Part shown: one piece after another, positions 1,898 to 52,078 of the stretch
How positions within the stretch are numbered: position 1 is the first letter of the stretch
Layout of the letters: each line of letters begins with the position of its first letter
Virus record (IMG/VR): IMGVR_UViG_3300020045_011333
Span: 64,001 to 128,000 of that record
Length of the DNA stretch: 64,000 nucleotides
Source: a virus
Strand: one strand, 5' to 3'
The notes under the pieces: generated by a model
Seen by the model: the letters and a program-made list of their open reading frames with translations, nothing else
Databases searched by the model: none
What the model was told of the DNA's origin: nothing
Translations under genes and position numbers: made by a program

Positions 1898-3772
1898 ATG
1901 GCCACTACAACAGAACTTCAAGCTAAAATTGATAAACTTTCAGTCAATATGGATAGGCTGAATCTAATCACAAATGGCAATTCTACTACTGAAGTAGCTA
2001 TTGATAGTGGAACTGTACCTAGTATTGCTAAATTCATAGCCGGTATTCAAGCTCAAGTAAATGCTGCCATTTCAGCCGGAAGTGTTTCCAAGGCTGGTGA
2101 CACAATGGGCGGCGACCTATACATTTCAAAAGTTAATCCTACATTAATATTAAGAAAAACATCCACAAGTGGACAAGTGAATAGGATTATAGGACAAACT
2201 AATACTGTAAGTAGATGGCTTGTAGATATTGGGGATGCCACCACTGAATCCGGTACAAATGTAGGCTCTGATTTAAGTATCCATAGATTAGACAATGCAG
2301 GTACTTATGCGGGTACGCCGTTTCAAATTGAGCGTTCCACCGGAATTACTAAAACCAACGAAGGTTTTAAGTGGATCAGGTGTATCCTTCTTCCTCAAGG
2401 AACTAATTTTGATACCGTATTAGAATCAGGTACGTATGATTGTTCTTCACCTCTTAACGGGCCTTATACCTCAACAGGTTGGTTTTATTTAGAAGTAATT
2501 CGTCATTCGGGTGGTACTGATTGGGCTATTCAAAAGGCAACGGCTTTAACTGATGCCTCTGGACATATTAACACATGGATTAGAAGAAGAACTTCAACTA
2601 CATGGAGTGCTTGGAAACCTTTATCTGGATTTGTTACCCCCGAACATTACGGCGCATTAGGTGATGGTAATAATAATGATACAACAGCCGTAACTTATGC
2701 TTTAAGATCAGGGTTCCCGGTAAATCTTCTTGGATTGTATAGAATTAATAATAATATTATTTTTGGTGATAACTATTCTGGAGGGGCAACAGATTACATA
2801 CAAGGGGCTGGAAAACGTCATTTTATTTTAGACGGGCAATATGCTAGACTAGATTGGGTAATAAATACTCCGGTAGGCGCTCAAGGGAGAATGCTAGTAG
2901 CAAAAGATATTGTTTTAGTGGGTAATGCTTCCAACCATGATTGGGGGGCATTAAATCTATCTACCACTGGAGGATCAAGCTCAACTTCCAAAACTTTCGA
3001 TTTAAGGAATATTATTACTGAAGGGTATAATGTAGATACCACCGCTCCACTTCATGGCATAACTTTAGCTAATATGAGAAATGGTATTTTGGATGGCTGT
3101 AAGCATCAAGGTAATCGAGCCAATGCTTCTGGAAGCCGAACTGGTATTGGAGTCTATGCACTAGGTACTGGTGATCCGGGAAGTTTTCATATTAATAACC
3201 AACATGCTTATTTTTGCTCTAAAGGCATAGAAATTCAACAAACCAATGAAAGAATTTCAATTACAGACTGCCGAATGGATTATGTTGATAATGGAATTAG
3301 AGTAGCATTAGATGAAAACCCCATAGATGGGGACAACATGGGTAAACCTACAACAATTATTAACGGAGGATTTATTAGACCTCATAGTGTGGGAGTAACT
3401 TTAGAAAGGGCTTGGAGTTGGAAAGTGACCAATGTAGATTTTCATACCCAAAGCTCAAATAGTTTCTTTGTAGGCATTGCGTCATCCATTTCCTCAACTC
3501 AAAGTCAACAAGGGTGGATCGATGGCTGCTCGTTTAGAGACTTATCTACGGCAGGCGGTGTATCTTCTAATACGACAAGAGGTATTTATTTACAAGGCCA
3601 CACTACAGGCAACGTAACTACTAGAATTGGTATGAACTTTTTTATTCTTTTAACAACTGGTATTTATTTAGATACACAAGTGAGAAGCGTAAGATATTCT
3701 GCCGCCGCAGTTTATGAAGGTGTAGTAACACCTGTGGCTAATTTTGGTGGCGGAACAAACACGTCTTATTAA
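1898..3772 (+). CDS. tail fibre/spike: N-terminal anchor, knob-like repeat, pectate-lyase-like beta-helix (putative polysaccharide depolymerase)
   Basis: Anchor motif DKLSVNMDRL...NG...VPSIAKF; knob-like GTYD...GWFYLEVIRH...QKA...WIRR...WSAWK; VTPEHYGALGDGNNNDTTA beta-helix cap motif. Confidence 0.8.
   Translation: MATTTELQAKIDKLSVNMDRLNLITNGNSTTEVAIDSGTVPSIAKFIAGIQAQVNAAISAGSVSKAGDTMGGDLYISKVNPTLILRKTSTSGQVNRIIGQTNTVSRWLVDIGDATTESGTNVGSDLSIHRLDNAGTYAGTPFQIERSTGITKTNEGFKWIRCILLPQGTNFDTVLESGTYDCSSPLNGPYTSTGWFYLEVIRHSGGTDWAIQKATALTDASGHINTWIRRRTSTTWSAWKPLSGFVTPEHYGALGDGNNNDTTAVTYALRSGFPVNLLGLYRINNNIIFGDNYSGGATDYIQGAGKRHFILDGQYARLDWVINTPVGAQGRMLVAKDIVLVGNASNHDWGALNLSTTGGSSSTSKTFDLRNIITEGYNVDTTAPLHGITLANMRNGILDGCKHQGNRANASGSRTGIGVYALGTGDPGSFHINNQHAYFCSKGIEIQQTNERISITDCRMDYVDNGIRVALDENPIDGDNMGKPTTIINGGFIRPHSVGVTLERAWSWKVTNVDFHTQSSNSFFVGIASSISSTQSQQGWIDGCSFRDLSTAGGVSSNTTRGIYLQGHTTGNVTTRIGMNFFILLTTGIYLDTQVRSVRYSAAAVYEGVVTPVANFGGGTNTSY
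1920..1960 (+). repeat. 41-nt exact repeat, copy 1 (copy 2 at 6355-6395)
   Basis: AAGCTAAAATTGATAAACTTTCAGTCAATATGGATAGGCTG is identical in the 5' ends of both tail spike genes. Confidence 0.95.
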
Positions 3773-3785
3773 TTTAATAAAATCC

Positions 3786-3814
3786 TTGACATTTAAAATT
3801 TCATATGATATAAA
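3786..3814 (+). promoter_or_regulatory. sigma70-type promoter
   Basis: TTGACA-17 nt-TATAAA with TG extension; a 10-bp inverted repeat 3811-3820/3836-3845 overlaps the -10 and the RBS. Confidence 0.75.
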
Positions 3815-3844
3815 GGCCTCATTGATTAACGTCACGAGGCCTTT

Positions 3845-4084
3845 ATGTTTTTAACAGTCTATGTCACAGAGTGGGACGAACCTTCTCGTCGCCACGTATT
3901 AAATTTATTAGATCAACCACATAAAGTGATTGACATTGACAAAAATCCTGATATAGCTGAGACTCAAAAGATTAAGGCTGTACCGACGACGCAGATTTAC
4001 GATAAAGACGGCGTATTATTAGCAACCAAAATTGGTGCCGCAACTAAATCAATTATAGAAGAGTGGATCAGAGAATGTCAATAA
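3845..4084 (+). CDS. thioredoxin-fold protein lacking the CxxC motif
   Basis: VTEWDEPS occupies the WCGPC position; IDIDKNPDIAETQKIKAVPT retains the cis-Pro loop; KIGAATKSIIEEWI matches the Trx C-terminal helix. Confidence 0.75.
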   Translation: MFLTVYVTEWDEPSRRHVLNLLDQPHKVIDIDKNPDIAETQKIKAVPTTQIYDKDGVLLATKIGAATKSIIEEWIRECQ

Positions 4085-4404
4085 TTAGCTTGAAAGAAAG
4101 AAGCAAACTAATCATAGCCTTTCGTATTATAGAATTTGGAAATTTTTTAGAAATTAAAGATTTTTTATCTGAATTCTATAATGGAAGTTTTTGTTTATTA
4201 ATTTATTTAAGAGAGACTTTGAAAAATACAAATGACATTGTAAATAGAGTTAAAGAAGATAAAATATTATTAACTACTGATTCTTCCGAACATGAAATTA
4301 AGTTTGGAAATGTTATTGTAATAGAAGATAACAAAATTAATATTTTTGATACAATCCATGACATGAACGAAAAATATGTTGAAATAAAGAAAAATAACAC
4401 TTGA
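4075..4404 (+). CDS. hypothetical protein
   Basis: ORF (track start 4063); the ATG at 4075 overlaps the upstream stop. Confidence 0.55.
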   Translation: MSIISLKERSKLIIAFRIIEFGNFLEIKDFLSEFYNGSFCLLIYLRETLKNTNDIVNRVKEDKILLTTDSSEHEIKFGNVIVIEDNKINIFDTIHDMNEKYVEIKKNNT

Positions 4405-4888: not shown

Positions 4889-4962
4889 CGATGGGTAGTT
4901 TAATTTAAGAGAACAGTTCCGTTGAGGAAAAAATGCTGGCGAGTCACCAGCCCCGTTGACCA
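4889..4962 (+). ncRNA. atypical tRNA-like element (possible TTG anticodon, non-canonical T-loop)
   Basis: CGATGGG/CCCGTTG acceptor, GTTT/GAAC D-stem, TTCC/GGAA anticodon stem, GCTGG-CGAGTCA-CCAGC T-arm, ACCA end. Confidence 0.65.
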
Positions 4963-4970
4963 AATAAAAT

Positions 4971-5046
4971 GTCAGTATAGCTCAGTCGGTAGAGCAAACG
5001 CTTGATAAGCGTTAGGCCAGAGGTTCAAGTCCTTTTACTGATACCA
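4971..5046 (+). tRNA. tRNA-Ile(GAT)
   Basis: AACGC-TTGATAA-GCGTT; GGTTCAAGTCC; ACCA. Confidence 0.95.
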
Positions 5047-5087
5047 AAAAGTGGAGGAGAAAATAAAGCATTAAAGAAAGATTTAAA

Positions 5088-5222
5088 ATGCTAAAATTTC
5101 TCAACAAGTGGAATAAACGACGAAATACTGTTAATGAACTAAGTCGAATGTCTGACAGGGAACTGAGTGATATCGGTATTAGTCGTTTAAATATTAAAGA
5201 AGTAGCTAGAGATTTAATTTAG
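5088..5222 (+). CDS. DUF1127 family small protein (44 aa), not in ORF track
   Basis: MLKFLNKWNKRRNTVNELSRMSDRELSDIGISRLNIKEVARDLI contains the L..MSDREL.DIGI.R..I family motif. Confidence 0.85.
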   Translation: MLKFLNKWNKRRNTVNELSRMSDRELSDIGISRLNIKEVARDLI

Positions 5223-5237
5223 ATTTTTTAGTTATAA

Positions 5238-5314
5238 CAGGGTGTAGCTCAACTTGGTGGAGCGCAAGCTTTGGAAGCTTGAGGTTATCTGTTCAATTCA
5301 GATCATCCTGACCA
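5238..5314 (+). tRNA. tRNA-Pro(TGG)
   Basis: CAGGGTG/CATCCTG; CAAGC-TTTGGAA-GCTTG; ACCA. Confidence 0.95.
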
Positions 5315-5727: not shown

Positions 5728-6054
5728 ATGTCTATCGAACTTAAAATTAAATCAAAACATCTTACTGAAGAAGCAAAAATTATTCGTTTCGAGGAAAGAA
5801 AACAAAAAGCTAGAAATAAAGAATTATTTTGGTCCTTAAGAAGCCACAGAACATGGGAAGTAAGGAATGAAAATAGAGCTACGTTTTTAGCCCGTGCTTA
5901 TTTAGCTGGAAAATCTTATAAATCTATTGAACATAAAGTTCATGATATTTGGAAGTTGAAAGCTTACATTTTACCAAGAACTTTAGTAATGGTAAATAAA
6001 TACGGAACTATAAAATTAACTAAAGATGATTTAATTAATTGGATCAGTGAATAA
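5728..6054 (+). CDS. conserved phage hypothetical protein
   Basis: GGAG RBS; basic 108-aa ORF (LKIKSKHLTEEAKIIRFEE...RATFLARAYLAGK). Confidence 0.7.
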   Translation: MSIELKIKSKHLTEEAKIIRFEERKQKARNKELFWSLRSHRTWEVRNENRATFLARAYLAGKSYKSIEHKVHDIWKLKAYILPRTLVMVNKYGTIKLTKDDLINWISE

Positions 6055-6061
6055 ATAAAAT

Positions 6062-6128
6062 TAAGGTTTCCTCTTCCTGATGCTTTGAGGAATTAAATTA
6101 AGTGAGTGTGACACTTAGGCCTTGACCA
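6062..6128 (+). ncRNA. D-armless tRNA-like RNA ending in ACCA
   Basis: TAAGGTT/GGCCTTG acceptor-like stem, TCCTC/GAGGA central hairpin, TAAGTG-AGTGTGA-CACTTA T-like arm, A+CCA, 2 nt before tRNA-Thr. Confidence 0.6.
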
Positions 6129-6130
6129 AT

Positions 6131-6207
6131 GCCGATTTAACTCAGTTCGGTAGAGTAGCTGATTTGTAATCAGTTTGTCAGGGGTTCAAATCCTCTAATC
6201 GGCTCCA
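6131..6207 (+). tRNA. tRNA-Thr(TGT)
   Basis: GCTGA-TTTGTAA-TCAGT; GGTTCAAATCC; TCCA. Confidence 0.95.
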
Positions 6208-6208
6208 T

Positions 6209-6283
6209 GCTCTCTTCGTCTAGTGGCTAGGATAGGACGCTTTCATCGTCCAGAAGACGGATCGAAACCGTCAGAGAGTACCA
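6209..6283 (+). tRNA. tRNA-Glu(TTC)
   Basis: GCTCTCT/AGAGAGT; GGACG-CTTTCAT-CGTCC; ACCA. Confidence 0.92.
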
Positions 6284-6329
6284 TTACTAAAACCATATTA
6301 ATAAATAATAACAAAAAGAATAATATTAA

Positions 6330-8504
6330 ATGGCACTTACCTCCGCTCAAGTTAAAGCTAAAATTGATAAACTTTCAGTCAATATGGATAGGCTGGATCA
6401 GATTGTCAATGGTAGTGATACAGCTACTGTAGTAACAGACAATTCTATTGTCCCTTCTGTAGCTAAATTTTTTAAAACTTTAGAAGATGCTGGTGGTAGT
6501 GGTGCTGGCGGATATTATTTACCTGAGAAATATGGAGCGACGGGTAATGATCCCGTTCACGACGACTATCCGGGTATAAGAGCAGCTATGGATGCAGCAT
6601 TAGCTGCTGGCGGCGGCTCTATTTATTTTTACCCAGAAAAGACTTATTATCTTTCTCAAACTTTAGAAGTTGATCCTTCTAGGCTTACTATTATTGGTAA
6701 CAGTGCAAGGTGGGATTTTAGACTCAAGAATTTTATTGATCCTGCTACTATTGGAGAGTCCGTTAACAATCCTGATTTTAATGGACAAACCGGCTGGTCC
6801 ACAAGCCCATTTAATGGTAATACGATTACTTATGGATCGTCCACTGTTTCAGCACCTAATGTAGCTTCTGAAGGCGCTACTATTGGCACATATTCTGAAT
6901 TTGGACAACAAATGACGATGCAGCCGGGGAAAATGTACCGAGTTACGTTGCAAGTCGATAGTATTGATACGATTACTGTGGGTATTAACACTAGCAGGTC
7001 TGTAGGGGTCAGTTTCAGACAGTATGGGATAGGTAATGGTGGTTCAGATGGCACTTTAAGATGGGCCTCAAACACTAATACAGAATATAGTACTACTAAG
7101 ACTTGGGTTTGGGATGTATTAAATAATTTTACTAATCCGTATCTAACTGTTCAATCTAATAACGGATTTGTGATAACTAGAATTTCTGTTAAAGAATTAC
7201 CTAATAATACAATGGTATTAATGAGAGTACCACCAAGCGGACAACTTAGAGGACATAATTTCCACTCTATTTATAATTTAAAAATTAGAGGTAAATCTGG
7301 TACAAGTCTATATTCGGATGGGATAGTATTTGATACACCAACTAGCGGATTTGCTTCTCGTGTAAATATCTATAATCTTGATCTTTCCGAAAATGTGGGC
7401 CGAGGGTTTATTTTTCAAAACCGTGCCTACCTTATGAATTTTTATAGCTGCCGAGTCGTATGTTCTGTATCGTGCGTAGATACTCTTAGAGGATCTGCTG
7501 ACGCGGGAGAAAACATTAATTTCTTCGGAGGAAATTTAGGAGGAGGATTGGTTGGGATTACGTCCAGAAATATGGATATTAGATGCCATGGCATGTCTAT
7601 TGATTTTTCTCGCCAATGGATTGTTTCTAGGGGTGGTGTTGTTGAACTTATTGGTTGCCACTTAGAAAATTCTGATTTTGAAACTGATCAAACCGCTACG
7701 GATAATCAGTATCGAATTGACGTAGATGGTGGAACTGTTCTGATTGATGGTGGTTATGTACTAAACGGAGGAACCACAGCCAATCTAGTTAATGCTCTCG
7801 CTCCTTTTAGATGCACCAATGGCACTATTAGAATAAGGAATGCCGCTTATTATGGATTAAATGGCTCGCTAGGAAAAATCTCCGTAGGCGATGGTAAAGT
7901 GGAAATGTTTAAATGTCATAACACTTCTGGCCCAACAGCCACAATAATTGCTGACAATTCTAATGAAGTACCACCTATCGAAGGTACTGTTGTCCCGTTC
8001 GATATACCAGTTACATCAGGCACAACGATATTATCAGTAGCTATGAGTACGGAGCAAGCCAGAACTGGTACTTCATCTATTAAAATTCTGAAAAGTGGGC
8101 TTGGACCGGGCGTAGCTGCAACTGCTTATCTACTATTCCCTTGCGGTGCTTATCGTGGTTTTGGTATGGAAGCGTGGTGGAAAGTTCCTATTACTTCGGG
8201 ATTAACTAATCCATTTCCTGTATTTTTACAAACGGGGTGGTGTAGAGCGGTTAGAGGAACTGACGGTGCATTTAAAATTGTTAAAACAACTTTGGTTTCT
8301 GATTTACCATTAACAAATATTGATCCTACTATTGATAATCCTTGGACTAGAGTAGGCTCAATGACAACACGTCTGGATGGTAGCTCGTCTCATGATGGCG
8401 AAGCCCCACCTTGGGCTACCCATGCTTTTATGAATGTGGCTATGGTTCAAGCGCCTAATGGTGCAGCAATCTACTTTGACGATGTTCACTTTAATCAATA
8501 TTAA
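6330..8504 (+). CDS. tail spike/depolymerase: anchor, beta-helix with inserted carbohydrate-binding-like module, C-terminal CBM-like domain
   Basis: N-terminus paralogous to 1898-3772; LPEKYGATGND...IRAAMDAA...GGGSIYF cap motif; beta-helix repeats. Confidence 0.8.
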   Translation: MALTSAQVKAKIDKLSVNMDRLDQIVNGSDTATVVTDNSIVPSVAKFFKTLEDAGGSGAGGYYLPEKYGATGNDPVHDDYPGIRAAMDAALAAGGGSIYFYPEKTYYLSQTLEVDPSRLTIIGNSARWDFRLKNFIDPATIGESVNNPDFNGQTGWSTSPFNGNTITYGSSTVSAPNVASEGATIGTYSEFGQQMTMQPGKMYRVTLQVDSIDTITVGINTSRSVGVSFRQYGIGNGGSDGTLRWASNTNTEYSTTKTWVWDVLNNFTNPYLTVQSNNGFVITRISVKELPNNTMVLMRVPPSGQLRGHNFHSIYNLKIRGKSGTSLYSDGIVFDTPTSGFASRVNIYNLDLSENVGRGFIFQNRAYLMNFYSCRVVCSVSCVDTLRGSADAGENINFFGGNLGGGLVGITSRNMDIRCHGMSIDFSRQWIVSRGGVVELIGCHLENSDFETDQTATDNQYRIDVDGGTVLIDGGYVLNGGTTANLVNALAPFRCTNGTIRIRNAAYYGLNGSLGKISVGDGKVEMFKCHNTSGPTATIIADNSNEVPPIEGTVVPFDIPVTSGTTILSVAMSTEQARTGTSSIKILKSGLGPGVAATAYLLFPCGAYRGFGMEAWWKVPITSGLTNPFPVFLQTGWCRAVRGTDGAFKIVKTTLVSDLPLTNIDPTIDNPWTRVGSMTTRLDGSSSHDGEAPPWATHAFMNVAMVQAPNGAAIYFDDVHFNQY
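6355..6395 (+). repeat. 41-nt exact repeat, copy 2 (copy 1 at 1920-1960)
   Basis: Identical sequence read in both loci. Confidence 0.95.
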
Positions 8505-11285: not shown

Positions 11286-11462
11286 TTGCCTGAATTAAAT
11301 TACATCTATATCGTTGAAGGTTTTCGTCAATACGGAGATAGTTGGATTGAAGATATTTTTGACAGTGAAGAAAAAGCGTCCAATTATATTAAAAGTAAAA
11401 CGGATAATCTTGGCGAAGATGATGATTTGATCTTGACAATAAAAATATATATGGTAAAGTAG
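11286..11462 (+). CDS. small hypothetical protein (58 aa, TTG start)
   Basis: AGGA RBS before TTG 11286; the track start at 11220 is inside tRNA-Leu. Confidence 0.6.
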   Translation: MPELNYIYIVEGFRQYGDSWIEDIFDSEEKASNYIKSKTDNLGEDDDLILTIKIYMVK

Positions 11463-11477
11463 CCTTACAAAAATAAA

Positions 11478-11513
11478 AATAGCCGGGATTATTAATCCCG
11501 GCTATTACTTTTT
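11478..11513 (+). terminator. intrinsic terminator closing the tRNA region
   Basis: AATAGCCGGGATT-att-AATCCCGGCTATT followed by a T-run. Confidence 0.85.
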
Positions 11514-37236: not shown

Positions 37237-37270
37237 AGAAAACCCGCCTTTCGGCGGGTTCTTTTTATTT
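37235..37270. terminator. bidirectional intrinsic terminator between convergent arms
   Basis: AAAGAA-AACCCGCC-tttc-GGCGGGTT-CTTTTT; A-run on one side, T-run on the other. Confidence 0.9.
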
Positions 37271-37534
37271 ATTACCTACTAGGTCTGCTACATAGGCCTT
37301 AAAATCGTCATAGCCGCCCACCAGCTTACCATTCTTGAAAATGCGAGGGAAGGTTCGATGCCCCTCCCTCACAAACGCCTGACGTTCCTCATCAGTTACA
37401 ACCTTCTTAATTGAAACTGGAACGCCAAGGATATTGAAAAGCGTGACGGTTTTATCACAATATGAGCAACCATCTTTCCCAATCATGAAGTAGTTATTGC
37501 CGAATTTATCTTCATCGAATAGATCATCTGACAT
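37265..37534 (-). CDS. glutaredoxin
   Basis: KDGCSYC...RTFPRIF.NGKLVGGYDD; likely start MSDD (track start 37561). Confidence 0.9.
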   Translation of the reverse strand: MSDDLFDEDKFGNNYFMIGKDGCSYCDKTVTLFNILGVPVSIKKVVTDEERQAFVREGHRTFPRIFKNGKLVGGYDDFKAYVADLVGNK

Positions 37535-37550
37535 TTCATGTTCCTTTAAG

Positions 37551-39206
37551 TTAAGCTTCACAACTTACGCAAGCTACAAGATTTCGGTTAAGTTCTGCTA
37601 CGGGCGAAGTAGAACGTTGATAATAAAGTGTCTTAAGGCCCATATCATGAGCCGCAAGAGTAAGTGAATTAACATCTTTTACCGGCATGTTAGGATGAAT
37701 CATTAGATTAATTGACTGTGATTGATCTATATATTTTTGACGATCAGCGGCTTGTACAATAATCTCATATTGACTAATCTCTCCGAATGTTTTAAATACA
37801 TTTTTGTCATGCTCTGATAGAAAATCTAGATGTTGAACTGAACCTTCTTTCATTAGAATTGATAACCAAACTTCATCAGTATCTTTATTTAATTGAATTA
37901 AAAGTTTTTTGAGATAAGGATTTTTATAAGTAAAATCACCTTTAGCAAGTGCCTTAACATAATAGTTAGACTGTTCCGGCTCGATTGAAGGAGAAACTTG
38001 CCCGAGAATAAAAGAAGATGAGGTAGTTGGAGCAATGGCTTGTCGAACTGTGTTTCTTTCACCATACCCTTTTAGAACTTCGGGTTCCCCTAAAACAATA
38101 GCCATTTCTTTAGAAGCAATTAAAGTTTGTTCATCAATGAATTTTTGAATTTCAATATTATAAGCTTTAGCTTCAATAGATTCAAAAGCAATATGTCTTG
38201 ATTGAAGAAAAGAATGCCAACCTAAACGACCAATACCAATGGCCCTGTGTCTAACAGCAAAATTATAAGCTGACTTCATATGACGAATGTTTTTTACTTT
38301 TTCAATATATTCTGACATGACAGCATCAAGGAACCATGTCATATCTTGGACAAATATAGGATCGTTTCGCCATTCTAAGAAATGAAGATCATTTAAACTA
38401 AGCAAGCAGCAAACAAAAGATTCATCTTCACTAGAAGGCTCCATAATTTCTGTGCAAAGGTTGCTAGCCCAAATAGTCATGCCTTTATCTTTATAGACTT
38501 TAGGCTTATTATCATTTACGTTATCATGAAAAAAGATATAAGGAATACCAGTTTCGGCTCGATTTTTTAAAATCTTAGCCCAAATTTTACGTTTGTCTTT
38601 GTCTCCTGCCCTCATCTCCGCTAACCATGATGAGGGTACTGTAATTCCATAAAATAGGTCTTGAATAAAACTTCCTTCGCGCCTAAATTCTAACACCTCC
38701 TCAATATCTTTGTGCCAAATAGGCCAATAGAAGGCACCAGAACCTCTACGAACTTTATTTTGAGACACAAGGTTAATAGTGTTTTGAAAAGCTTGTGCAA
38801 AATGAGCCGAACCATCAGTGTTTCCACCACTTTTAATAGGTTCTCCGCGACCTCTAATTTCTCCCATATAGCCAGATACACCAGCGCCATATTTAGTCAT
38901 CATTGCAATTTCAGAAACTTTATCATAAATTTTTGCTGTATCATCTGAAATATACGAGCCATTACAACTAATAGGAAGATTAAAGCCATGACCAAAATTA
39001 GACCAAATAGGAGAGGCTAGAGAGCACCAACCTTTAAGGATGTAATCTTCTATCCTATCCGCTAAACCATCTCGCCCTGTGTACCTCTCAGAAGCTTTAG
39101 CAATAACTCTGATTCGTTCTTCTGCTGTCTGACCCGGAGCTAGATAATCTCTTGATAAAAATGTTCGAGAGTCCTTGTTGAGCCAATATCCTTTAGTTAA
39201 ATTCAT
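37551..39206 (-). CDS. nrdA: ribonucleotide reductase class Ia alpha subunit (no ATP cone)
   Basis: ISCN, SNLCTEI, CCLLSLN, AIAPTTSSS, DQSQSINL, LKTLYY, C-terminal CVSC. Confidence 0.95.
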   Translation of the reverse strand: MNLTKGYWLNKDSRTFLSRDYLAPGQTAEERIRVIAKASERYTGRDGLADRIEDYILKGWCSLASPIWSNFGHGFNLPISCNGSYISDDTAKIYDKVSEIAMMTKYGAGVSGYMGEIRGRGEPIKSGGNTDGSAHFAQAFQNTINLVSQNKVRRGSGAFYWPIWHKDIEEVLEFRREGSFIQDLFYGITVPSSWLAEMRAGDKDKRKIWAKILKNRAETGIPYIFFHDNVNDNKPKVYKDKGMTIWASNLCTEIMEPSSEDESFVCCLLSLNDLHFLEWRNDPIFVQDMTWFLDAVMSEYIEKVKNIRHMKSAYNFAVRHRAIGIGRLGWHSFLQSRHIAFESIEAKAYNIEIQKFIDEQTLIASKEMAIVLGEPEVLKGYGERNTVRQAIAPTTSSSFILGQVSPSIEPEQSNYYVKALAKGDFTYKNPYLKKLLIQLNKDTDEVWLSILMKEGSVQHLDFLSEHDKNVFKTFGEISQYEIIVQAADRQKYIDQSQSINLMIHPNMPVKDVNSLTLAAHDMGLKTLYYQRSTSPVAELNRNLVACVSCEA

Positions 39207-40114
39207 AGGGTTTCTTCTTTTTCTATTAATTGATTTATATTATTTCGTCTTGCATCCCAAGACTTTTTTACGGACAGTCTAATTTTTTCTTTAGTTTCTT
39301 CCGAAACTACACGGCCCTTAAGCCTTTTAATTAATTTTTCTTTTCTCTCTTCAGAAAGTTTAGTACCAAGTAAAGGAGAAGGCCTACCCTTTAAACTTTT
39401 TGAGATTCTTTCTTTTCTTTCATCAGGTATTGTTGTACCTTTAAGAGAGGAATGTTTCCCTTTATTTCCTAAAGAAATTTTTTCTTTGTGTTCGTCACTA
39501 AGAGGCCCAGTTTTTACACCTTTATTAACAGGAGAAACACCAATTCTATGTTTACCTAATTTTTCAATATGACTTTTGGATAATTTTCTCCCCGTGTTAG
39601 TTTTACTTATTTTATCTTTAGTCTCTTGTGATCTTTCTCTACCCTTTAGAGCTAAACTAATTTTTTCTTTTTGTTGTTCGGTTATAGGAGGTCTTACAGC
39701 TTCAGACATTCTTTTTATTTGTTCTAAACTTCTCTTTTTACCCCTATTTGAAGCAGCCATTTTTTCATATCTGTCTTTTTTATAATCTAAGCCCCCATGA
39801 TTTTTTATGGAGTTGCTTTTATTTAAAAATAATGGATTGTTTTTTGCATCAAAATATATTAATACTGATCTTTCCCATTCTAAGCATTCTTCTTTTGTTA
39901 GAAATGTTTTATCAATTTTTATTATATCTGGTTCACCAAATTGTTCTCTGAATTTTTTTACTTCTTTGGAGGATGAAAAGTAAATATTCCATAAGTCGTC
40001 AGGATGAGCGCCATTTTTGTACAATCCTTTATTAATAGCAAATCTAGATCCATAATAGATTTTTGAAAATTTTGTCCAGCCAATAAAATAACAATACGGA
40101 GTGTAAATTGTCAA
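39203..40114 (-). mobile_element. free-standing GIY-YIG-like homing endonuclease with NUMOD3 repeats between nrdB and nrdA
   Basis: YCYFIGW...YYGSR...YFSSSK; repeated KG..(R/L)S.E.K.KIS motifs; 4-nt overlaps with both neighbours. Confidence 0.85.
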
Positions 40115-41085
40115 AATAAATCTTCTTCTGAATAACTTTTATCGTTTTTAGAATAATACACAGGTTTATTAACAAAAAAATCTTGCTGATTGTATCCATA
40201 TTGAGCTTCGCGTGTCCAGAACGTTAGATCAATGAGTTCTTTATTAACTTCGAAGGGAGTATCAAAACCAATAGCTTTTAAGGATTCATTAAGTCGTTCT
40301 TTAATGTATTCTTTTAAAATTTCAGGGCTTAAATTATCATGACGATAATCACCAATAATCCAATCAATCAATTTAGATTCGGCTTTAAAAGCTTCCTGAA
40401 TTTCTTGAGTAATTTTTTCTATTAGTTCTTGATCAAACATTTCAGGATACTCTTGACGAAGAGTATTGATAATAGTAATACCAACTTTACTATGACTGTC
40501 TTCTTCTAGTCTTGTATAAGCTATCTGTTGTTTTGTATCAGGAAGAAGTTGTCTAAATTTATTAAACCAAAGAATAATATAAAATTGACTAAATAGAGAA
40601 ACATTCTCAACAAATAAAGTAAACAGAATAATAGAGTAAATATATTGTTTCCTATTATTGGAGTATACTTTTTTATTATGTTTACGAAGGTACTCAACCC
40701 TACCTTTAACTACAGGTTCTTTTAAATTTTCTTCAAATATGTTACCCATTTGTAGTACATCCAAGAGTTTTTCGTAAGCCAAGTTATGAATCACTTCGGA
40801 ATTTGCCATGGTGTAACCAAGATCAGAAATAGATGGATGAGGTAAATTTTCTCCAAGTTTAGCCCAAAAGGTCTTTATATTAATTTCCACTTGGCCAATA
40901 CAAGATAAAGTTCTAGAGACTATTTGACGCTCTTGATCTGTTAGTTCGGATTTAAATTGTCCGTAATCGGCTTTGAAATCAAATTCGTCTGGTGTCCATT
41001 GGGTATGCCAAAATGCCTTAATAAAATCTTTGGCCCACGGGTAGTTATCAGGTTTACGAGAAAGTTGTTCGTCAAATAGGCCCAT
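40111..41085 (-). CDS. nrdB: ribonucleotide reductase class Ia beta subunit
   Basis: W.P.EFDF, QVE...K.FW, NSEVIH..AY, FVENVSLFSQF, EE..H. Confidence 0.95.
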   Translation of the reverse strand: MGLFDEQLSRKPDNYPWAKDFIKAFWHTQWTPDEFDFKADYGQFKSELTDQERQIVSRTLSCIGQVEINIKTFWAKLGENLPHPSISDLGYTMANSEVIHNLAYEKLLDVLQMGNIFEENLKEPVVKGRVEYLRKHNKKVYSNNRKQYIYSIILFTLFVENVSLFSQFYIILWFNKFRQLLPDTKQQIAYTRLEEDSHSKVGITIINTLRQEYPEMFDQELIEKITQEIQEAFKAESKLIDWIIGDYRHDNLSPEILKEYIKERLNESLKAIGFDTPFEVNKELIDLTFWTREAQYGYNQQDFFVNKPVYYSKNDKSYSEEDLF

Positions 41086-50014: not shown

Positions 50015-52078
50015 TTAGTGAGTCGAACCCCAATTCAAACCAATCTTATATTCAGCCGCAACAGGTAATTTAAATTTAAAATAATCACCCGCTTCACCTG
50101 CCGCCACGGCTGAAATTTCACCAGCTTCTTTAGCAATTGCCTCTAGAACTGAAACCTGAATCTCATCATGCACAAAGGCCATCATGGCAAAATCACCATC
50201 CCAAGAATGGACGTAACCCTTTGATTCCATTATTTCTTCAAATAACAGAACCCATTTCTTAGCAATCATAGCACCAGCGTTTTGAAGCAAAGTATTAAGT
50301 GCTGCGTGTTGCGCTCTGATATAGAGACGGCGACCATCAATACCTTCAATGAAACCACGACGAGCTTCATTTTTAAGAAGTTTCATTAGTTTTTTAAGAG
50401 CAGGAATGTTTCTTAAGAATTTTTCTGTTAGTTCTTTTCCAATACGAATTTGAGTCGCTTGGTTTGAAAAAGGTGCAACTATAGATCCTATTTTTTCTGG
50501 TCCTGCACCATAAAGTAGAGCGTATATGAATGTCTTCGCTTGGTCACGACTTTCCAAACCAGCAGCGTTCATATTGACGGTATGGATATCACCTTCAAGC
50601 AATTCACGGCCATATTCGCCATCGTCAAACTGAGCCATGTAGTGAGCTAAGCAGCGAAGTTCGATACCAGACAAGTCAGAACCCATCATGACGAATGGCG
50701 ACGTAGTATAGAACAATGAGCGGCACTCATAGCCCCATCCACCTTCACGGCCCATCTTGATATTCTTATTCTTGTCTTTTGAGATAGCAGGAACTTGTCC
50801 AAGATTTGGCTTAGCGTGAGTACAACGACCTGTTACAGCACCACAAGGATTAACATAATGATGGATTTTATTTTCAGGCGTAACTAGTTTTAGCCAACCA
50901 TTATCACCATCTGCTAATTGACCTAATGTCTTGTTGACACTAAAATAATCGGCTAGAGTTGTAGCAATTGGGAATTGTTCTGAAGCATTTTTTAAAATAA
51001 TATCATCGATTTTGATATTACCTTTTTCAGTGAAGTCTTGAGGTTCCCAACCTTGTTCCATAAGTCTTGCCGCGACTTGCTGGCGAGAACCGGGATTAAA
51101 TTCTTTAAAGAAAATAGGCGTGAAGGGACAACCAGCCGTTCTATCACCACGGGCAGGGTCTTTATATTTTAGTGTACGTTTAGGAATAGTCATAGCTTCG
51201 ACTGGTTTATCTTGTGCATGATTAGCCAGAATTTCATAAACCATGTCTTCTAGTTCAGGATTGTTTATCGTGTCCCAATCTATTTCATTATAAGATTCTC
51301 TAAGTTTACCATAAGTTGTTTTACCTACAGCTTCCATTCGTGAAGGAAAATTTTCTTCACATTCTGTGGTAATTTTTTCTTTGCCATCGCGAAGTTCTTT
51401 TTCTAGAACTAGTGCAGCTTCAACATTAAAAGGAAAACCATTGGCTTCCTGCCTAACGCAATAATCAGCAAATTCATGTTCGAAGATAATAGGGAATTCT
51501 GGGTATGCCTGTTCCATAAGCATCTCCCAAAGAACAACGGTTACTTCAACGTCATTAGCGCAATATTCGTCCAGTTCTTCAGTGTAATTTCCCCACACAT
51601 AATCAAGAATTTCATCTTCATCTGTAATGCCTAGAAGTTTAGCTTCTTTTTCTTTTTTATCTGCATAATCTCCCTTGTATTTACCAACACGATAGCCCCA
51701 ACTATCGAGACTATGCTTGCCGATGAATTTAGCAGGGATTACACCACGCTCATGGAGGCGGAAATCCAGTTCTTTTTGGTGAGAAAACATGACACGAGTC
51801 ATGACAAGACTATCGCGAATCTTACCCTTAAGTTCAAATTGAGGATAAAGTTTTGATAATGCAGGAATATCGAATCCTAGCCCGTTGTGAGCCACGACCA
51901 TATCAGCGTCTTCTAAAAGAGCTAATCCTTCTTCGATATTGTGTTGTAGAAATTTAAACTTGCGCCCCGTTTCGAATTCTGTGATATGCATGACGTGAAC
52001 CTTCGTGATTCGGTTCAAAAGTCCGTCAGATTCTATATCGAAAATAGCTGTTTTTAATTTAATTTTTTTCTTTGACAT
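50015..52078 (-). CDS. T7-type family A DNA polymerase with 3'-5' exonuclease and thumb insertion
   Basis: FDIESDG, HNGLGFDIP, DLSGIELR, RDQAKTFIYALLYGAG (Tyr at the 762-equivalent position), VHDEIQ. Confidence 0.95.
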   Translation of the reverse strand: MSKKKIKLKTAIFDIESDGLLNRITKVHVMHITEFETGRKFKFLQHNIEEGLALLEDADMVVAHNGLGFDIPALSKLYPQFELKGKIRDSLVMTRVMFSHQKELDFRLHERGVIPAKFIGKHSLDSWGYRVGKYKGDYADKKEKEAKLLGITDEDEILDYVWGNYTEELDEYCANDVEVTVVLWEMLMEQAYPEFPIIFEHEFADYCVRQEANGFPFNVEAALVLEKELRDGKEKITTECEENFPSRMEAVGKTTYGKLRESYNEIDWDTINNPELEDMVYEILANHAQDKPVEAMTIPKRTLKYKDPARGDRTAGCPFTPIFFKEFNPGSRQQVAARLMEQGWEPQDFTEKGNIKIDDIILKNASEQFPIATTLADYFSVNKTLGQLADGDNGWLKLVTPENKIHHYVNPCGAVTGRCTHAKPNLGQVPAISKDKNKNIKMGREGGWGYECRSLFYTTSPFVMMGSDLSGIELRCLAHYMAQFDDGEYGRELLEGDIHTVNMNAAGLESRDQAKTFIYALLYGAGPEKIGSIVAPFSNQATQIRIGKELTEKFLRNIPALKKLMKLLKNEARRGFIEGIDGRRLYIRAQHAALNTLLQNAGAMIAKKWVLLFEEIMESKGYVHSWDGDFAMMAFVHDEIQVSVLEAIAKEAGEISAVAAGEAGDYFKFKLPVAAEYKIGLNWGSTH

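Follow-up and report, generated by a model that had tools for sequence, protein, structure and literature searches.

The pairing of T7 DNA polymerase with thioredoxin is the textbook example of how a virus can borrow an enzyme from its host for a structural role. Might a phage encode such a partner itself, in a form that has given up the redox chemistry? This question is raised by a short thioredoxin gene in an uncultured phage of about 185 kb. The window considered here is a stretch of 64,000 nucleotides with a GC content of 37%; it covers bases 64001-128000 of an IMG/VR virus record of 184,940 bp, which is complete and has direct terminal repeats. The original prediction held that the gene encodes a redox-dead thioredoxin, that it has its own promoter, and that its product may be a dedicated partner of the T7-type polymerase encoded in the same window, thereby freeing replication from the thioredoxin of the host.

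The cysteine-free thioredoxin and its family

The gene (3845..4084, + strand) encodes a protein of 79 residues beginning with MFLTVYVTEWDEPS, and a GAGG ribosome-binding site (3836-3839) stands 5 nt upstream of its ATG. Residues 10-14 read WDEPS, the cis-Pro loop AVPT occupies residues 45-48, and the sole cysteine, at position 78, lies outside the active site. In the complete 184,940-bp genome it is the only PF00085-like sequence. Its metagenomic relatives comprise ten further protein clusters (two of them fragments) with 57-74% identity, some of which sit on contigs of 165-188 kb. The pattern W-D-x-(P/F)-S is present in all nine homologues that span the active site (65-74% identity), and CxxC in none of them. 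Comparison of the window gene with three relatives gives a dN/dS of 0.11-0.24, with dS not saturated, which indicates purifying selection on the gene and identifies it as neither a chance ORF nor a relic. Thus, the ORF is a real and well-conserved gene.

Profile searches recover the thioredoxin family below threshold throughout: the match to the Pfam Thioredoxin profile PF00085 (E 2e-4) scores 21.7 bits with the gathering cut-off at 23.5, that to PHROG 22, 'thioredoxin domain', has an E-value of 1.8e-3, and the NCBIfam thioredoxin matches are likewise sub-threshold. A precomputed match to PF00085 is listed for several close homologues. An AlphaFold2 model based on a 55-sequence alignment (pLDDT 97.3) has the topology b-a-b-a-b-b-a of the thioredoxin fold. 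Its top Foldseek matches are the structures of classical thioredoxins and TrxA (probability 1.00), and it superimposes on the E. coli thioredoxin of the T7 polymerase complex (1t8e_B) with a TM score of 0.89 and an rmsd of 1.5 A. In the alignment WDEPS falls column for column on WCGPC, and W10, P47 and G64 are invariant among the 55 sequences; P13 is also kept in the window protein. By sequence, the protein therefore has the cis-Pro loop of TrxA-type thioredoxins and lacks their WCGPC/CxxC dithiol. The model, the structural matches and the alignment thus agree with the predicted 79-residue thioredoxin fold in which WDEPS replaces WCGPC and the VPT of the cis-Pro loop is intact. We assign the modelled protein to the thioredoxin fold with high confidence, and its sequence predicts that it is unable to carry out thiol-disulfide chemistry.

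The 79-residue form is that of the phage 'short' thioredoxins, without the strand and helix with which cellular thioredoxins begin, and its nearest clusters in the ESM Atlas and BFVD are short-form phage thioredoxins. With members of this group, such as that of cyanophage Syn5 and viral clusters of 80-88 residues, it shares size and topology; however, they keep a CXPC site and are redox-active, whereas the window protein lacks any active-site thiol. These short forms are reported to be without about 20 N-terminal residues, and the Syn5 thioredoxin is thought to feed ribonucleotide reductase (RNR) (bioRxiv 10.1101/2025.10.05.680603). Could the window protein then retain a residual or unconventional redox activity, or be a decaying relic of such a phage thioredoxin? 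One cysteine is indeed left, and the nearest fold neighbours are active short-form enzymes, but Cys78 is unconserved (of nine full-length homologues, six are entirely free of cysteine) and the active site has no thiol, while the dN/dS values and the identities of 65-74% over many contigs speak against decay. We consider this explanation extremely improbable.

Other assignments were tried and rejected. A KaiB match reached 18.4 bits, with a cut-off of 27, over a stretch of only 22 residues, and its NCBIfam counterpart was far below the cut-off; an AlphaC match was spurious. A glutaredoxin or NrdH was dismissed on the basis of the missing CxxC and of the strand-strand-helix end of the protein (ATKIGAATK...W), which is thioredoxin-like.

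A tblastn search of 50,697 phage records with the 79-residue protein matched only Bajun, while a pattern scan of IMG/VR recovered three close relatives together with unrelated CxxC short forms; a scan with the nearest outgroup protein (P0046) gave no match. Beyond its own family, the best BLAST matches are the Bajun thioredoxin, with WSGPA, and a short thioredoxin with WCGPS that is encoded on a T7-like podophage contig, in an early region that also contains integrase and T7-like RNA polymerase genes. Many 'cysteine-less' matches in the representative search were discarded as gene fragments or chimeras of a SAR11-type thioredoxin. Many of the top profile matches (P0021, P0055, P0064, P0065, P0070 and others) are of this kind and comprise the C-terminal half of the SAR11-type protein. 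This half (...ATKVGATTKSNIVSWIKENI) is similar to that of the window protein (...ATKIGAATKSIIEEWIRECQ), a likeness that may stem from AT-richness common to both or from the origin of the gene.

T7-type polymerases and the loss of the dithiol

The proposed partner is a family A DNA polymerase of the T7 gp5 type with 687 residues (50015..52078, - strand), which was detected with the Pfam DNA_pol_A profile and by a phmmer search of the PDB, where the match to T7 gp5 covers residues 12-687 (E 1e-122). Aligned with T7 and six relatives in MAFFT, the enzyme shows a thumb insertion of 86 residues at about residues 241-326 (51101..51358, - strand), in the columns of the T7 thioredoxin-binding domain (258-333; 76 residues in T7), a placement made by alignment only, as the sequence in the middle of the insertion is dissimilar to that of T7 and its C-terminal strand alike. 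In an anchor-based comparison this strand, AGCPFTPI (residues 315-322, nt 51113-51136), matches AGAPYTPV of T7, and in G030, a phage from the same family as that of the window, the strand is identical to that of T7. The T7 strand presumably lies against the active site of thioredoxin. The genome thus encodes a gp5-type polymerase with a thumb insertion, for which about 71-76 residues would be expected of a T7-type system, and the earlier identification of a T7-type polymerase is borne out both by the end-to-end alignment with gp5 and by an insertion of the size of the thioredoxin-binding domain. An insertion of at least 50 residues is found in only about 29% of T7-like polymerases (PMC10201439). 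The nearest relatives of the window polymerase (41-47% identity) belong to large siphophages of Alphaproteobacteria, namely Citromicrobium phage RXM, Erythrobacter phages L02 and XM05, Sphingobium phage Lacusarx and the phiCbK group, and also to Microcystis phage Mwe-JY26; all those aligned have an insertion of 78-93 residues. The extended loop of the phiCbK polymerase had been proposed by the authors of that genome to bind 'another protein' (PMC3556154).

As had also been noted, RNR reduction appears to be provided for elsewhere in the window. A six-frame motif scan and translation identified a glutaredoxin with an intact CSYC site directly downstream of nrdA (37265..37561, - strand), and nrdA and nrdB themselves were identified by Pfam, with nrdB upstream, beyond a NUMOD3 homing endonuclease gene. 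On this basis, the glutaredoxin is predicted to serve as a separate redox partner for the phage RNR. Within this region (37551-41085, - strand) the homing endonuclease gene lies at 39203-40114, between nrdB and nrdA, and NrdA has only 551 residues, with its barrel-domain match split into three stretches; it may be shortened or rearranged.

If loss of the dithiol is connected with the polymerase, the two should go together in other phages. Apart from the window phage (WDEPS), seven phages that encode a thioredoxin together with a T7-type polymerase were found: Bajun has WSGPA, L02 FCGPS, XM05 FCGPT, Lacusarx WCAPS, and RcXuper, DSS3P8 and RpAliso have WAGPC. The polymerases of these seven are full-length T7-type enzymes with 37-47% identity to that of the window. 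In contrast, WCGPC or WCNPC is kept in the control phages BRock, Motura, BcepSaruman, JWAlpha and RD-1410W1-01, the family A polymerases of which are not T7-type and have at most weak local similarity to T7 gp5, and WCGPC in a sixth control, FLC9, in which no family A polymerase was found. The dithiol is thus broken in 8/8 phages with a thioredoxin and a T7-type polymerase and intact (WCxPC) in 6/6 controls, although this small sample of related phages overstates independence, with about five lineages on each side. Contigs carrying the CxxC short-form relatives are 11-54% complete and were thus left out of polymerase scoring. With this qualification, the comparison yields the co-occurrence of CxxC-less thioredoxin and T7-type polymerase that had been put forward as a check on the prediction. 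In contrast, phiCbK, BL57, RXM and Mwe-JY26 have the same type of polymerase and insertion despite having no thioredoxin gene, and a phage thioredoxin is therefore dispensable there. T7-like podophages too are mostly without the gene, as 27 IMG/VR T7-like contigs of at least 28 kb contained a single thioredoxin, which is NrdH-like with CQPC. Fusions of thioredoxin and polymerase were sought as Rosetta-stone evidence and none was found, the long matches being multi-thioredoxin (PDI-like) proteins.

Like the window protein, the thioredoxins of Bajun (host Brevundimonas), L02 and XM05 (Erythrobacter), Lacusarx (Sphingobium) and DSS3P8, RcXuper and RpAliso (Rhodobacteraceae) are phage-encoded, have a damaged CxxC and occur with an insertion-bearing polymerase. 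However, they are full-length proteins of 103-121 residues rather than 79, most keep one cysteine, and they belong to separate lineages; their alignment is too divergent for a pattern scan. A thioredoxin tree, though poorly resolved overall, separates three groups with broken dithiols: the window family (support 100/99), which is placed among short-form CxxC phage thioredoxins, a clade of Bajun, XM05, L02 and Lacusarx (99/79), and the DSS3P8 group (100/99). Among them the first cysteine, the second or both have been lost. These separate groups, their short-form and full-length origins and their differing cysteine states suggest that the dithiol was lost independently at least three times. The L02-type clade includes 19 further metagenomic clusters, some on contigs of 130-165 kb with phage genes, and all have [FW]C[GA]P[ST], with the first cysteine kept in 19/19. 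This retention suggests some thiol function in that clade.

The polymerases themselves differ at the position of T7 Thr327, which is Cys (AFCPV or PFCPI) in phiCbK, BL57 and Mwe-JY26, which have no thioredoxin gene, and Thr or Val in the phages with their own broken-dithiol thioredoxin. An engineered T327C variant of T7 gp5 reportedly forms a disulfide with Cys32 of thioredoxin. Given this and the cysteine at the same position, the polymerases of phiCbK, BL57 and Mwe-JY26 might capture host thioredoxin covalently. As regards annotation, the Bajun WSGPA thioredoxin (4935-5270) is labelled an 'exonuclease', apparently wrongly, and the L02 FCGPS protein (3001-3318) has no resolving cysteine, yet is taken to be the hydrogen donor of RNR in the paper describing that phage (PMC9127768).

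W-D-x-P-S thioredoxins are also encountered where no T7-type polymerase would be expected. One is a chromosomal 'thioredoxin family protein' of 98 residues, highly conserved in Flavobacteriaceae (Aequorivita, Olleya, Algibacter and others), in which 53 cysteine-free clusters show the motif W[DNS][ED][PAT]S, with one being exactly WDEPS, and some others have WDEAC. Its gene (6001-6297) adjoins metallophosphoesterase and polysaccharide deacetylase genes in a housekeeping-type neighbourhood. It resembles the window protein in its motif (37% identity over 59 residues), but is chromosomal and has a different C-terminal half. None of the window protein's 45 best BLAST matches belongs to this family, and the shared WDxPS therefore looks convergent. 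The second is a 106-residue WDAPS thioredoxin (7751-8071) of a P2-like prophage in Pseudomonas sp. MF7453 (GCA_016405455.1), a protein that the tree places as sister to the Bajun/L02/Lacusarx clade. Its gene adjoins portal and terminase genes, near those for a pentapeptide-repeat protein and a Pol-beta nucleotidyltransferase. P2-like phages often carry accessory genes at such a site, which is regarded as a hotspot. We speculate that the gene has an accessory or exclusion function, for example as a decoy for the polymerases of incoming phages.

These cases are relevant to another view of the window protein, in which its thioredoxin fold serves a partner other than the polymerase, independently of redox chemistry. 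It could be a holdase or chaperone, or could link up an unrelated phage or host protein as an adaptor, and it may do the same job as the cellular WD(E/D)(P/A)S family. Both the Flavobacteriaceae family and the prophage protein occur where no T7-type polymerase is to be expected, the thioredoxin gene of the window lies outside the replication module, and E. coli thioredoxin has a redox-independent chaperone activity (PMC6449771). This view fails, however, to explain why the dithiol is broken in all eight phages with a T7-type polymerase and in none of the six controls, and the motif shared with the Flavobacteriaceae family, which is outside the 45 best matches, looks convergent. We regard it as somewhat unlikely. 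Still less likely, in our estimation, is a decoy that occupies thioredoxin reductase, or a thioredoxin-activated defence or toxin protein, without turnover. The retained surface and absent chemistry are what a competitive binder would have, the sister WDAPS protein adjoins the portal gene of the Pseudomonas prophage, and host TrxA is bound by some toxins and nucleases, according to the title of PDB entry 8s2n and to bioRxiv 10.1101/2025.01.20.633832. Yet there is no thiol common to the phage lineages, so that trapping by mixed disulfides is not the shared mechanism, and the association with T7-type polymerases would go unexplained.

Transcription signals and gene neighbourhood

The thioredoxin gene lies 46 kb from the polymerase gene, on the opposite strand. 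Directly upstream of it is the gene for a tail-fibre-like protein of 624 residues; downstream follow a 109-residue ORF, tRNA genes, of which the window has 14, and, after small conserved genes, the portal gene. Those relatives that have long contigs keep the order of fibre genes, thioredoxin, small genes and portal. The 109-residue ORF (4075..4404, + strand), which has only sub-threshold Pfam matches and no homologue in the relatives, starts with an ATG overlapping the end of the thioredoxin gene (ATGTCAATAA) and is possibly co-translated with it.

The position of the thioredoxin gene directly after tail-fibre-like genes and before the portal block, in the window and in all long-contig relatives, would suit a helper in tail-fibre or virion assembly, comparable to the redox-independent need for thioredoxin in the assembly of filamentous phages, where a redox-inactive thioredoxin supports assembly of f1 (PMC6449771). 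But in Bajun, L02, XM05, RcXuper, DSS3P8 and a 163-kb metagenomic relative the thioredoxin gene is found among helicase, nucleotidyltransferase, kinase and AAA genes and not among structural genes, and in the window a terminator-like hairpin stands between the fibre gene and the thioredoxin. We therefore hold a role in assembly to be very unlikely.

This hairpin coincides with the signals for expression of the thioredoxin gene itself. At 3786..3814 (+ strand) the sequence contains a candidate promoter of the sigma-70 type, TTGACA-N17-TATAAA, in which a TG lies two bases ahead of the -10 element. The consensus promoter scan omitted it (TTGACA at 3786, N17, TGaTATAAA) because the last base of the -10 element is A. 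RNA folding reveals a strong hairpin at 3807..3849 (+ strand), with a folding energy of -27 kcal/mol and a z-score of -5.5, that no shuffled sequence equals, and the -10 element, the ribosome-binding site and the ATG all lie inside it. Its GC core (GGCCTC/GAGGCC) followed by a T-rich tract makes it terminator-like, and it probably terminates transcription of the tail-fibre-like gene upstream. Transcripts starting at the candidate promoter would lack the 5' arm of the hairpin and have the start site exposed; in read-through transcripts the hairpin would hide it. In the relatives the upstream ORF abuts the thioredoxin gene and there is no such intergenic promoter, which is therefore not a conserved feature. 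Thus, the proposal that the gene has its own promoter is only partly supported: the TTGACA-N17-TATAAA elements are present, but they overlap a terminator-like hairpin and are absent in the relatives.

Similar arrangements of promoter and hairpin precede other genes of the window, the fibre-like gene included, so the thioredoxin promoter says little on the timing of expression. At 1831-1880 and 11433-11506, near-consensus promoters overlap or are followed by a long hairpin or terminator ahead of ORFs at 1898 and 11530; the pattern suggests recurrent terminator-promoter cassettes between the genes of the window. On the - strand, a perfect sigma-70 consensus (TTGACA-N18-TATAAT, 12/12) at 4052-4081 is antisense to the 3' end of the thioredoxin gene, and could direct RNA across this gene toward the hairpin at 3807-3849.

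A putative polymerase subunit

What, then, is the cysteine-free thioredoxin for? We propose that it is a candidate for a phage-made structural subunit of the T7-type polymerase, a reading that is plausible and partly supported, and to which we give a little less than an even chance. It is suggested by the active-site face that is kept without the chemistry, by the separate reductant for RNR, and by the recurrence of the broken dithiol in independent lineages with T7-type polymerases. [quoted passage not shown]

The mechanism that we envisage follows the T7 complex. The surface around the former active site, with its Trp and Pro, the cis-Pro loop and the last-strand Gly, would be kept for docking on the thumb insertion, in the way that T7 gp5 is bound by E. 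coli thioredoxin, and the docked protein would clamp the polymerase on the primer-template, with higher processivity as the outcome. Replication would then not rely on the amount or the redox state of host thioredoxin. The reduced form of thioredoxin is reportedly the one that binds gp5, and the Asp and Ser that replace Cys32 and Cys35 may mimic the thiolate and thiol of this form. A possible benefit is that such a protein would not be diverted to host substrates or reductase; another would be avoidance of the growth defect that is caused by expression of an active phage thioredoxin (bioRxiv 10.1101/2025.10.05.680603).

The T7 system and its proposed counterpart have much in common. The thioredoxin fold is shared (TM 0.85-0.89 to the thioredoxin chain of the complex in PDB 1T7P/1T8E), the polymerases belong to the same subfamily, and the insertion is at the same thumb position and has a matching strand. 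However, T7 gp5 uses a host protein, whereas that of the window is phage-encoded, has WDEPS and is without the N-terminal strand and helix; Gly74 in the cis-Pro loop of E. coli thioredoxin is Ala in the window protein, the binding of which is only proposed.

Our confidence in the polymerase role stays slightly below the halfway mark on account of the remote location of the gene next to fibre genes, the dispensability of a phage thioredoxin in four relatives of the polymerase, and the occurrence of WDxPS elsewhere. It is further lowered by the first cysteine kept in the L02-type clade, by the small sample of related phages, and by the result that AlphaFold3 predicts no confident binding of the short-form Syn5 thioredoxin to its own polymerase (bioRxiv 10.1101/2025.10.05.680603). 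More tentatively still, we suggest that large siphophages of Alphaproteobacteria with T7-type polymerases have, at least three times, converted a thioredoxin that they had captured into a redox-dead subunit dedicated to the polymerase, with Asp...Ser as a permanent mimic of the reduced state.

In a recent survey the CXPC site was described as conserved among phage thioredoxins (bioRxiv 10.1101/2025.10.05.680603), and in the literature searched we found no description of a broken-dithiol group among them. The pattern includes cultivated phages, namely Bajun, Lacusarx, L02, XM05, DSS3P8, RcXuper and RpAliso. If the polymerase role is true, the T7 host factor would have its first natural phage-encoded counterpart in the window protein, and a dead thioredoxin of this kind would show how a phage internalizes a dependency on its host. 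Such a role would also exemplify convergent loss of enzyme chemistry in favour of a binding surface, would explain 'thioredoxin' genes wrongly annotated as RNR reductants, and would provide new pairs of polymerase and processivity factor for biotechnology. Even if it is wrong, that the dithiol was repeatedly lost under purifying selection would indicate that phages put thioredoxin to a non-redox use not described before.
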